A stretch of 9,631 nt of DNA from a virus (Duplodnaviria > Heunggongvirae > Uroviricota > Caudoviricetes), in the IMG/VR virus record IMGVR_UViG_2737471845_000027. One strand, written 5' to 3'. Position numbers and translations under genes: made by a program. Positions 2,185-9,218 of the stretch are shown here, in pieces. Each line of letters begins with the position of its first letter. The first letter of the stretch is position 1. A model generated the notes under the pieces. The model worked only from the letters and a program-made list of their open reading frames with translations, did not search any database and had not been told where the DNA came from.

Positions 2185-2719
2185 ATTAATAACTCTCTAC
2201 TGTAAGGGTATTAAAATGCTATCACAAACTCTCGCTGTAGGGGTATAGCCGAGACCACCGAGCCTGAAGTGGTAAAAAGACAGGCACACAACACGAAAGC
2301 GCACGGCGAGGCTGTTAGTTCATAAATGGTCTGTCGTTAAATTTACGTCGACCGTGCGCTTCCGGTTGTGGCACTCCGCGAAATGGCGCGGTGGTAAGTA
2401 TGGCGGGGTTATTCATTCCCAGTTGAGGACACCGGGTTGTCAGGTTGACCATACGCTTAAGTGACAACCCCGCTGCAACGCCCTCTGTTATCAATTTTTT
2501 GGTGACGTTTGGCGGTATCAGTTTTACTCCGTGACTGCCCTGCCGCCCCTTTTTAAAGTGAATTTTGTGATGTGGTGAATGCGGCTAAGCGCACGCGGAA
2601 CAGTTAAAAGCATCAGTGTTATGGGTGGATTATCCGGCGTTAATTGTTAACTGGTTAACGTCACCTGGAGGCACCAGGCACCGCATCAACAAAGTTCATT
2701 TGTAAAAATGGAGATAATT
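2185..2719. promoter_or_regulatory. 535-bp non-coding region between divergent sieB and kilR (pL-equivalent position)
   Basis: No ORF longer than about 33 codons on either strand. GC-rich core at roughly 2280..2600. 9-bp inverted repeat gggttgtca (2434..2442) / tgacaaccc (2462..2470). Weak stem then ccccttttt at 2511..2554. Candidate sieB promoter on the minus strand near 2200..2240. Confidence 0.4.
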
Positions 2720-7079: not shown

Positions 7080-7286
7080 ATGACAAAAACTTTGAGATAT
7101 GACGATGTTAAACCATGTCCGTTTTGTGGTTGTCCATCAGTAACGGTGAAAGACATTTCAGGATATTACCGGGCAAAATGCAACGGATGCGAATCCCGAA
7201 CTGGCTATGGTGGAAGTGAAAAAGAAGCGCTCGAAAGATGGAATAAACGAACCACTGAAAATATTAATGGAGGCGTTCATGTATAA
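7080..7286 (+). CDS. ralR: RalR / Lar (restriction alleviation protein; type I toxin DNase)
   Basis: Internal ATG of track ORF 7053..7286. 68-aa product MTKTLRYDDVKPCPFCGCPSVTVKDISGYYRAKCNGCESRTGYGG... with two Cys pairs, recognised as RalR. Confidence 0.85.
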   Translation: MTKTLRYDDVKPCPFCGCPSVTVKDISGYYRAKCNGCESRTGYGGSEKEALERWNKRTTENINGGVHV

Positions 7287-7467
7287 AATTACCGCTACAA
7301 TTGAAAAGGAAGGTGGCACTCCTACTAACTGGACAAGATATTCAAAATCTAAACTAACGAAATCAGAATGCGAAAAAATGCTCTCAGGTAAAAAAGAAGC
7401 AGGCGTTTCCAGAGAGCAGAAAGTAAAACTGATAAATTTTAATTGCGAGAAACTTCTGTCCTCGTGA
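7279..7467 (+). CDS. ydaC: YdaC-like small protein
   Basis: Track ORF 7207..7467; GGAGG at 7270..7274 is 4 nt before ATG 7279 (MYKITATIEKEGGTPTNWTRYSKSK...). Overlaps the ralR stop by 8 nt. Start could instead be ATG 7267. Confidence 0.65.
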   Translation: MYKITATIEKEGGTPTNWTRYSKSKLTKSECEKMLSGKKEAGVSREQKVKLINFNCEKLLSS

Positions 7468-7573
7468 GTTGCATTATATCCAAATTAGAACTTCATAGCT
7501 GATTATTAAAAATCAATCACGTCCGCCAGTATTCTGTATATTTACTGGCGGTCATATCGTAAGAGGTATGGCA

Positions 7574-7855
7574 ATGAATCTTGTGACACTCAAAACGTGG
7601 GGGAAACTCAGATATCCGGATAATCCACCATCAATATCAACGCTGAGACGATGGGCAAGGAATGGAAACATTTATCCTGCACCTGAACTACACGGGAGGA
7701 GTTACAGGGTGGTTCCGGAGGCTTTCTATATCAACCCAAATAAGGTTGATACCGATATAACACACCATCAGCCTAATGGGCGACAAGGGAGAGACAGTCC
7801 GTTACTGGAGAAGTTAAAACATGCAGCGGAAAAAATACGATCCCAATTTGCCTAA
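7574..7855 (+). CDS. xis: Excisionase (lambda Xis-like)
   Basis: Track ORF 7568..7855; AAGAGG at 7561..7566 favours the second ATG (7574). Motif ISTLRRWARNGNIYPAPELHGRSYRVVPEAF resembles lambda Xis. The 3' end overlaps the int start, as in lambda. Confidence 0.75.
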   Translation: MNLVTLKTWGKLRYPDNPPSISTLRRWARNGNIYPAPELHGRSYRVVPEAFYINPNKVDTDITHHQPNGRQGRDSPLLEKLKHAAEKIRSQFA

Positions 7856-8897
7856 AAACTTAACATATCGAAGGAGGGACAAAGCATATTACTGGCGCAA
7901 CCCTCTGACGAAAGAAGAATTTACACTAGGTAAAATTTCAAGAAGAGATGCAGTAGCGCAGGCAATTGAAGCAAATCATTATATATACAAAAACTACTCT
8001 CCTGCTGCCTTAATTGAAAAGCTTAAAGGGTTCGACTCATTTACTATGGCAGACTGGATTGAACGTTACAAAACGATTCTTATAAGGAGAAAAGTGTCCA
8101 GAAATACTTATAAAATCCGGGTAAATCAACTGGAGACAATAAAAGAAAAATTGGGAGAGATTTTACTGACAGAAATAACCACTCGCCATATTGCCGAGTT
8201 TCTTGATTTGTGGATTGAAGGAGGGAAAAACACAATGGCAGGATCAATGCGTTCTGTGTTGTCTGATATGTTTCGCGAGGCCATTGTTGAAGGACGTATA
8301 TCTCAAAATCCAGTCACGCCAACAAGAGCACCGAAAATAGTAGTTACAAGAGAACGACTGAAACTAAAGACATACAACTGCATCAGGGAGGCAGCAGATC
8401 AACTTCCGGCATGGTTCCCATTAGCTATGGATTTAGCCCTTGTAACAGGACAACGTCGCGAAGACATAACGAATATGCGGTTCAGTGATATTTATGATGA
8501 CCGTCTCCACATCAGGCAAATTAAGACAGGAATGATGATTGCTATCCCTCTGTCACTCAGCCTTCCTGTCGCTGGTCTACGGCTTGGTACAGTAGTTGAA
8601 CGATGCCGCCTGGTAAGCCGGGGAGATTATCTAATCAGTGCCGGGATTAGAAAAAACAGCCCTGACGGCAGCATTCACCCGGATGGCCTGACAAAAAAAT
8701 TTGTCGCAGCCAGAAAATTAACAGGTATCCAGTTCAGTGAAAACCCACCAACTTTTCACGAGATCAGAAGTCTGGCTGGACGATTGTACAAAGAAACATG
8801 TGGAGAAGAATTTGCCCAGCGCCTACTTGGTCACACATCGGAGAAGACAACAAAAATGTATCTTGATGAGCGAGAAAAAACGTACTTACTGCTCTGA
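7821..8897 (+). CDS. int: Tyrosine site-specific integrase (lambda Int family)
   Basis: 358 aa. Conserved blocks [12 protein letters not shown] (Arg), [10 protein letters not shown] (His-x-x-Arg) and [13 protein letters not shown] (His and catalytic Tyr). Last gene before the host junction. Confidence 0.9.
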
Positions 8898-8962
8898 TTT
8901 TAACGTAAATGGATTGTTAAATGTATATTGGTTGTGATATAACCAAAAAAGACCGGAATACA

Positions 8963-8994
8963 GAAATTCGAGTAAATTTCGGGGAATTTCGGGG
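8963..8994 (+). repeat. Three tandem 10-11-bp direct repeats; candidate Int arm-type (P'-like) sites
   Basis: gaaattcgag (8963..8972), aatttcgggg (8975..8984), aatttcgggg (8985..8994). Located between int and the predicted core, as P'1-P'3 are in lambda attP. Confidence 0.5.
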
Positions 8995-9002
8995 AGACGC
9001 TT

Positions 9003-9015
9003 GCAACTAATTGAT
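9003..9015 (-). promoter_or_regulatory. IHF-consensus site (H'-like) between the arm repeats and the predicted core
   Basis: Minus-strand sequence aATCAAttagTTg matches WATCAANNNNTTR exactly. Confidence 0.4.
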
Positions 9016-9028
9016 TTTAAATACAATT

Positions 9029-9131
9029 AAAAAGAGACCGAATACGATTCCTGTATTCGGTCCAGGGAAATGGCTCTTGGGAGAGAGCCGTGCGCTAAAA
9101 GTTGGCATTAATGCAGGCTTAGTTGCCTTGC
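9029..9131 (-). ncRNA. sdsR: SdsR (RyeB) sigma-S-dependent small RNA
   Basis: Minus strand reads GCAAGGCAACTAAGCCTGCATTAATGCCAACTTTTAGCGCACGGCTCTCTCCCAAGAGCCATTTCCCTGGACCGAATACAGGAATCGTATTCGGTCTCTTTTT, which I recognise as SdsR. 3' terminator hairpin spans 9036..9062, followed by a T-run. Confidence 0.8.
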
Positions 9132-9134
9132 CCT

Positions 9135-9145
9135 TTAAGAATAGA
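9135..9145 (-). promoter_or_regulatory. Sigma-S-type extended -10 element for sdsR
   Basis: Minus strand TCTATTCTTAA, close to the sigma-S -10 consensus TCTATACTTAA, ending 4 nt before the SdsR 5' end. Confidence 0.55.
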
Positions 9146-9218
9146 TGACGACGCCAGGTTTTCCAGTTTGCGTGCAAAATGGTCAATAAAAAGCGTGGTG
9201 GTCATCAGCTGAAATGTT

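Follow-up and report, generated by a model that had tools for sequence, protein, structure and literature searches.

Prophage–host junction at the right end of the window

The window, i.e., the whole stretch of DNA analysed here (9,631 nt; IMG/VR record IMGVR_UViG_2737471845_000027), contained at its right end, in order, xis, int, 131 bp of non-coding DNA, the SdsR/RyeB gene overlapped by RyeA, and yebY (Table 1). The int product carried the Pfam domains PF00589 (catalytic), PF22022 (central), and PF09003 (Arm-DNA-bind_1, E = 2e-6), and it displayed about 41% identity to HK022-type Int.

The window was 100% identical to Escherichia coli 13E0780, in which a ~44-kb lambdoid prophage occupied the SdsR terminator, with pphA on one side and yebY/sdsR on the other; this prophage contained a rac-like recombination region, RalR/RalA, DicF, and lambda-like head and tail genes. 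From position 9028 rightward, the window matched E. coli in all 5426 complete genomes, while the phage arm left of 9028 was present in only 228 of them, each of which had the full 131-bp arm; the strains with this prophage family included O157, O26, O55, and O45. The junction in the window is of the attL type, belonging to the ~44-kb lambdoid prophage. According to the prophage map, the native RyeA promoter and 5′ end were displaced about 44 kb by the insertion.

Two further sRNA genes were found within the prophage part of the window: the RalA antitoxin sRNA (7285–7463, minus strand; 217.6 bits) and DicF (2497–2548, plus strand; 71.9 bits). Both adjoined rac-like recE/bet/exo/kilR genes, and modules of the rac and Qin types are combined in this mosaic prophage.

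Table 1. Features at the right end of the window (positions are those of the window)
Feature	Position	Strand	Basis
xis (excisionase)	7568..7855	+	ORF; Pfam Exc PF07825, E = 6.5e-14; excisionase annotation in NZ_CP020106
int, lambda-type tyrosine integrase, 358 aa, with N-terminal arm-DNA-binding domain	7821..8897	+	ORF and Pfam
Extended -10-like motif TGATATAAC	8935..8943	+	TGnTA... motif in relatives; promoter activity putative
r0, imperfect second copy of the terminal SdsR segment	8945..8963	+	Alignment; shuffles; presence in attP of relatives; conservation in 22 arm families
Arm-type repeat r1 GAAATTCGAGT	8963..8973	+	Direct repeat
Arm-type repeat r2 AAATTTCGGGG	8974..8984	+	Direct repeat
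Arm-type repeat r3 AATTTCGGGG	8985..8994	+	Direct repeat
IHF-consensus site AATCAATTAGTTG (H′ equivalent), between arm repeats and core	9004..9016	-	Exact match to WATCAANNNNTTR; IHF binding predicted
RyeA (SraC), conserved part, antisense to SdsR	9025..9169	+	Rfam RF00101, 178.9 bits
Common core, identity block of attP and attB except T/C polymorphism at 9043	9028..9054	.	Three-way alignment; far junction
SdsR (RyeB) sRNA gene, rebuilt across the junction	9029..9128	-	Rfam RF00111, 116.4 bits
C core half-site GACCGAATAC, phage-supplied; 3′ arm of SdsR terminator on minus strand	9036..9045	+	Inverted repeat; terminator call
GATTCCT, 7-bp hairpin loop, putative overlap (strand-exchange) region	9046..9052	.	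Bracketing polymorphisms
B′ core half-site GTATTCGGTC, host-derived	9053..9062	+	Three-way alignment; inverted repeat

Core site and crossover

In a three-way alignment, the junction in the window was compared with the empty site of strain AR_0128 and with the uninterrupted attP of PP818812 (int 98% identical); the opposite prophage end in 13E0780 (the far junction) was read as well. Position 9043 had the phage-type T in the window and the host-type C at the far junction, and position 9055 had the host-type A in the window and the phage-type T at the far junction; because these two polymorphisms bracketed the crossover, strand exchange was placed within 9044–9054. Since this interval contained the 7-bp terminator loop, we infer from the lambda paradigm that the two stem arms of the SdsR terminator, which formed a perfect inverted repeat (GACCGAATAC and GTATTCGGTC), are natural core-type half-sites, and the same paradigm would make the loop GATTCCT the overlap region. 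The resulting array GACCGAATAC–GATTCCT–GTATTCGGTC had two inverted half-sites around an overlap within the 6–8-bp range, with the crossover inside.

The terminator stem of SdsR in the lysogen carried the phage-derived T at 9043, while C was found in the far junction (L003, ~44715–44725) and in the empty-site strain, giving a U-A pair in the lysogen versus a U-G pair with the host-type C.

Lambda-like P′ arm

Going outward from the core, the int-proximal (P′) arm had first the IHF site, next the three arm-type repeats in tandem, and beyond these the second copy r0. The three repeats, of the type (A/T)ATTTCGxx, are the equivalents of P′3–P′2–P′1 (r1–r2–r3, respectively). Across the arm families (see below), the TTCG nuclei of the repeats were almost invariant, r1 sat 67–68 bp from the core in every family, and the IHF-site columns TAA....TTGA were kept; matches to the IHF consensus numbered three in the window versus 0.59 expected. 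The other attP arm also carried repeats of this type at +118 to +150, as seen in phage pPE4 (PP818812), in many relatives, and at the far junction. The system thus combined an integrase having catalytic, core-binding, and arm-binding domains with repeats on both arms and an IHF consensus site, as in the lambda type.

The arm-type repeats AATTTCGG had TTCGG in common with the B′ half-site GTATTCGGTC, and the repeats ATTCGGAC of some families were identical to GTATTCGGTC, in inverted orientation, at seven to eight of 10 positions. This likeness hints that the arm-type and core-type sites of these phages may be related via duplication.

Second copy of the SdsR 3′ end

The first-pass annotation had claimed that aaaaaagaccggaatacag, on the phage side of the junction, resembles the SdsR terminal segment aaaaagagaccgaatacg at 9029–9046. 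Both strings were found as claimed, and the former indeed lay on the phage side, with E. coli homology beginning at 9028 and int ending at 8897. The two strings formed a direct repeat with 16 matches and two single-base indels, and the alignment could be extended to 8945–8983 versus 9029–9061. The 33-bp core (both strands) was aligned locally with the 127-bp phage arm and compared with dinucleotide-preserving shuffles (n = 5000): the observed score was 26, while the shuffles gave 14.1 ± 2.3 and only four of them reached 26 (P = 0.0008); the best score among 147 tiles from the remaining window was 21. Owing to the hairpin form of the SdsR terminator (GACCGAATAC/GTATTCGGTC), r0 also matched the other hairpin arm in inverted orientation (8956–8967 versus 9047–9058, 92% complementary).

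The nucleus of r0 was GACCGGAATAC at 8951–8961, within which the family-wide motif CnGrATAY occupied 8954–8961 (CGGAATAC in the window). Compared to the true half-site, r0 of the window matched at 10 of 11 positions with one inserted G, and this extra G left CnGrATAY intact. No inverted partner half-site was found at 7-bp spacing from r0, its nearest inverted relative being r1 at a distance of 2–3 bp (10-mer to 10-mer), and the 7 bp following r0 were AGAAATT versus GATTCCT after the true C half-site. Lacking a partner at that spacing, r0 as it reads cannot be a recombination site.

Several other candidates for the nature of this segment were rejected: (i) a second sRNA copy, no SdsR/RyeA Rfam match being found in 8860–9027 even at E <= 10; (ii) a local terminator at r0, the only terminator called being that of SdsR itself; (iii) an RNA hairpin at r0, the folds of 8935–8990 being no better than those of shuffles (z = -1.1 and 0.07); and (iv) long-range pairing of r0 with the SdsR 5′ stem arm (141-nt minus-strand fold, z = -2.2), which involved an 85-nt loop and was lost in the families with 50% identical integrases. 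A mirror core-like site in the outer P arm (ATATTTCAGGTC in the window family) was likewise dismissed, its place being taken by a further arm-type repeat in other families.

Presence and conservation of r0 in relatives

A scan of genome contigs with the single Int protein gave two near-identical loci only, and diversity was instead obtained by matching the sdsR core as a DNA pattern against viral contigs, which gave 120 loci. A related int ended next to the core in 92 of these 120 loci, representing 77 distinct arms that all had the same layout; 22 arms with integrases 50–100% identical were chosen as diversity representatives (referred to as arm families), which share ancestry and are not independent samples.

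The comparison with related attP sequences that the first-pass annotation had proposed showed r0 to be present and conserved, with a match above chance. It was identical in the contiguous int–attP–tail-fibre sequence of PP818812, and it was present in the contiguous attP of OK490361 (a circular record) and OL617042, while the empty site of AR_0128 contained no copy. Salmonella phage ZC-S1_prp, a circular record with an int 74% identical, had kept r0, and its spacer between repeats and core had diverged; in Flyfo siphovirus Tbat2_3 (int 50% identical), r0 was GACCGAATAT and directly followed the int stop codon; in both, the three arm repeats lay just inside r0. r0 is accordingly built into the phage attachment site and is not a product of integration.

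Across the 22 arm families, the r0 10-mer kept C3 and G5 in 21 arms and A7, T8, and A9 in all 22, giving CnGrATAY; it ended 5–6 bp before the TTCG of the outermost repeat and lay 84–85 bp from the true C half-site, whereas the spacer columns between the arm repeats and the IHF site held nearly zero information. At this fixed register, r0 matched GACCGAATAC at 7.3 of 10 positions on average (22 families) versus 2.5 of 10 for 3270 control 10-mers, 0.5% of which reached 7; and in 16 of the 22 arms, r0 (plus strand, 84–85 bp upstream of C) was the best half-site match within the whole arm. Such a pattern indicates purifying selection, because neutral DNA should be randomised at 50% protein identity. 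r0 was hence a real, phage-borne, conserved, and core-like segment, and it is very probably a selected element of attP.

In one viral contig (L056, ~8540–8575; int 99.4% identical), CCAAAAA was joined directly to AGACCGAATACGATTCCTGT by a deletion of precisely the 84 bp between r0 and the true core, with the loss of all arm sites and the IHF site. This deletion presumably arose from short-homology recombination between the two copies; Int-mediated recombination of r0 with the core was ruled out as its cause, the 7 bp after each copy being different. No deletion of this type was found in the 5426 complete E. coli genomes. The deletion would lock the prophage in, and the contig shows that a direct repeat of the core is a liability.

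Fossil int at empty sites and the ryeA promoter

The left flank of the empty site, between pphA and sdsR, aligned with the int 3′ end of the phage families with 50% identity (AR_0128 [L002] 1420–1500; L003 ~44790–44850, minus strand; left flanks L088, L094, and L101), and it was seen in E. coli and in three other host backgrounds among the viral contigs. The alignment scores were 26–65 versus 15 ± 2.3 for shuffles, none of 1000 shuffles reaching the observed values, and the translated remnant read LDDRGAEYGMV versus LDARGAEYVMV* in the phage. The RyeA start site has been placed at sdsR +141 (PMC6610125), i.e., 6–8 nt downstream of TGTTATGGT, which matched the last int codons (V-M-V). With the RyeA start located just downstream of TGTTATGGT within the fossil, the native ryeA promoter appears to be an exapted integrase 3′ end plus P′ arm.

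In the lysogen, TGATATAAC was preceded by TTGTTA at 8914–8919 with an 18-bp spacer, and this pair faced outward through attL into ryeA. A TGnTA... motif was located 3–8 bp upstream of r0 in 19 of the 22 arm families, the TAA within TGATATAAC ended the reading frame of int in those relatives whose int was longer, and TGATATAAC was not called in a strict consensus promoter scan. An outward phage promoter may replace the ryeA promoter displaced ~44 kb by the prophage.

Other insertions and records at the sdsR core

Other arm types were found on the same sdsR core (left flanks L032, L041, L042, and L125; right flank L018): one of them had AACAGGA repeats on both sides of the core, and L018 had a (TTCCG)n microsatellite directly abutting it. 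This variety is consistent with a hot spot for insertion by multiple families.

PP818812.1 (L001), recorded as 'Actinobacillus phage vB_Apl-pPE4', was about 96% identical here to the E. coli prophage, and its attP core was the E. coli sdsR 3′ end. The stated Actinobacillus host looks doubtful, pointing to a contaminant or a misassignment.

Alternative explanations of r0

The first-pass annotation had left three explanations side by side: a relic of an earlier integration at the site, a core-type decoy site, and chance. The first and the last are both scarcely credible. Insertions are known to cluster at the sdsR 3′ end (PMC7380047, PMC3333887), and several unrelated arm types use it, which speaks for a scar of earlier integration or excision; but r0 was found in the attP of phage sequences that were not integrated (PP818812, OK490361, and OL617042) and not in the empty site, and none of the 228 arm-bearing E. 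coli genomes had less than the full arm. A chance match in AT-rich DNA is at odds with the shuffle result and with conservation in 22 arm families. A duplication of the attP core could also be ancient, with r0 persisting by descent without present function. Its homology to the core takes in the A-run (AAAAAAGACCG versus AAAAGAGACCG) and can be stretched over 8945–8983, and TTCGG is common to the arm repeats and the B′ half-site; yet five positions were kept in 21–22 of 22 families at a fixed register, with integrases down to 50% identity and with the adjacent non-coding spacers randomised, and the direct repeat is the very liability exposed by the 84-bp deletion in L056. Mere descent is therefore very unlikely.

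Two other readings give r0 a present function. r0 might be a fourth arm-type site, inverted and bound by the N-terminal domain of Int instead of its core-binding domains: its reverse complement GTATTCCGGTC contains ATTC.GG like the arm repeats AATTTCGG, the families with ATTCGGAC repeats match it at seven to eight of 10 positions and have the arm repeats themselves as the best inverted half-site matches, and in several families r0 together with r1 makes up an imperfect palindrome (CCGAAT..ATTCGG). However, the contiguous TTCG nucleus was missing from r0 in the commonest families with 50% identity (GACAGGATAT), the invariant ATA of r0 had no counterpart in the arm repeats, and r0 did not co-vary with the 3′ parts of the repeats, which differed by family (CGGGG, CGAGG, CGGAC, CGTGG, and GGTGG). 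The reverse complement of r0 matched the arm consensus of its own family at 5.8 of 10 positions at the best of eight offsets, a good match in CGGAC families and a poor one in CGAGG, CGTGG, and GGTGG families. An inverted arm site is considered unlikely. r0 might alternatively owe its conservation to an outward promoter carried by the phage, which would stand in for the displaced ryeA promoter in lysogens; r0 would then be the region of the transcription start or the 5′ leader. The -10-like motif a few base pairs upstream in 19 of the 22 families, the native RyeA start 6–8 nt downstream of the homologous TGTTATGGT in the empty site, and the reported change in the 5′ part and level of RyeA upon phiW104 lysogenization (PMC7380047) speak for such a role. 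Against it, the register of r0 was fixed to the arm repeats and the core and not to the -10-like motif (3 to 8 bp), the r0 motif had decayed to GACTATAAAG in the fossil arm of the empty site, from which ryeA is still driven, folding gave no significant local RNA structure (z = 0.07 and -1.1), and the -10-like motif was simply the last int codons in many families. This role is quite unlikely.

r0 as a proposed accessory integrase-binding site

On balance, r0 is more likely than not a fourth, accessory, core-type-like Int-binding site that ends a lambda-like P′ arm on its outer side, and among the options first listed, that of a core-type site is thereby favoured: r0 was core-like and conserved down to 50% integrase identity, while its role as a decoy is only proposed. 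r0 had the orientation of the true C half-site, and the evidence as a whole leans toward a core-like rather than an arm-like character; it is only a lean, because r0 is also a good inverted arm site in CGGAC families. No co-variation of r0 with the family-specific C′ half-site was evident by eye, C′ being too degenerate to be informative. The points that count against an accessory core-type site are the extra G in r0 of the window family relative to the true half-site, the lack of a partner half-site at 7-bp spacing, the shared ancestry of the arm families, the good inverted arm-type match where the repeats are CGGAC, and the location of r0 where the transcript of a possible phage-borne ryeA promoter would start.

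Int binding at r0 and the effect of such binding can be proposed as follows. The lambda-family integrase recombines inside the SdsR terminator hairpin, and an Int protomer with its N-domain on the outermost arm repeat could engage r0 in cis through its core-binding and catalytic domains; the 84–85-bp spacing (about eight helical turns) puts r0 on the same helical face as C. Docking might then stabilise or 'park' the protomer in the attP or attL intasome, r0 holding the Int domains until attB or another partner site is engaged. The specific notion that r0 is a cis-acting 'parking' or decoy core-type half-site, holding the Int domains until attB capture or during attL assembly, is put forward tentatively and with clear reservations.

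Comparison with known attachment sites

The arm in the window resembled the P′ arm of lambda and HK022 (C′–H′–P′1–P′2–P′3, next to the int 3′ end) in being adjacent to int, in having three tandem direct arm-type repeats at 10–11-bp spacing that are separated from the core by an IHF consensus, in the arm-binding N-domain of its Int, and in the further arm repeats on the long opposite arm. It differed in two respects: (i) it had a conserved core-half-site-like motif outside the third arm repeat, and (ii) its core lay in an sRNA terminator hairpin with the stem arms serving as half-sites. We know of no fourth site described in lambda outside the third P′ arm repeat.

Compared with the core-type half-sites (C, C′, B, and B′) of lambda-type att sites, r0 nearly equalled the true C, B, and B′ and was oriented as C, and its best-conserved bases (ATAY) were those abutting the overlap in the true site; unlike such half-sites, it had neither an overlap nor a partner at 7-bp spacing, and it had one extra base in the window family. 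As at attachment sites in tRNA and tmRNA 3′ ends, the phage carried the 3′ end of the target RNA gene (half of the terminator plus the T-run), so that sdsR stays intact after integration because the phage supplies a replacement 3′ end; the target here, unlike in those cases, was an Hfq-type sRNA, and the extra copy was not needed to rebuild the gene. The original paper on the phiW104/ryeB att site is reportedly that of Balbontin et al. 2008 (J Bacteriol 190:4075).

Both the att core within sdsR and the hot spot are already known: as summarised in PMC7380047 and PMC3333887, the att site of phiW104 in Salmonella is the last ~23 bp of sdsR (ryeB), internal to ryeA, and integration replaces the 5′ part of ryeA at a locus that is an insertion hot spot. 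The prophage in the window targeted the same sdsR 3′ end. These summaries give the common core only and mention neither the architecture of the arm nor a second copy; judged against them and as far as checked, the layout of the arm and its extra, conserved core-like half-site are undescribed.

Significance

The attL/attP layout is now defined for the prophage family inserted at sdsR/ryeA, which is carried by ~4% of complete E. coli genomes. For the reading of prophage borders, a second 'core' near a junction need not mean a tandem or a past integration. The lambda-type attP model comprises five arm sites, four core half-sites, and sites for IHF, Xis, and Fis; a conserved extra core-like half-site at the outer end of P′ would enlarge this textbook model by one element, and it would also provide a straightforward way to examine how the two DNA-binding modules of a heterobivalent integrase are distributed. 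If the parking site is true, r0 would be an as yet undescribed fourth element of lambda-type P′ arms, one that tunes how efficiently or in which direction recombination proceeds.
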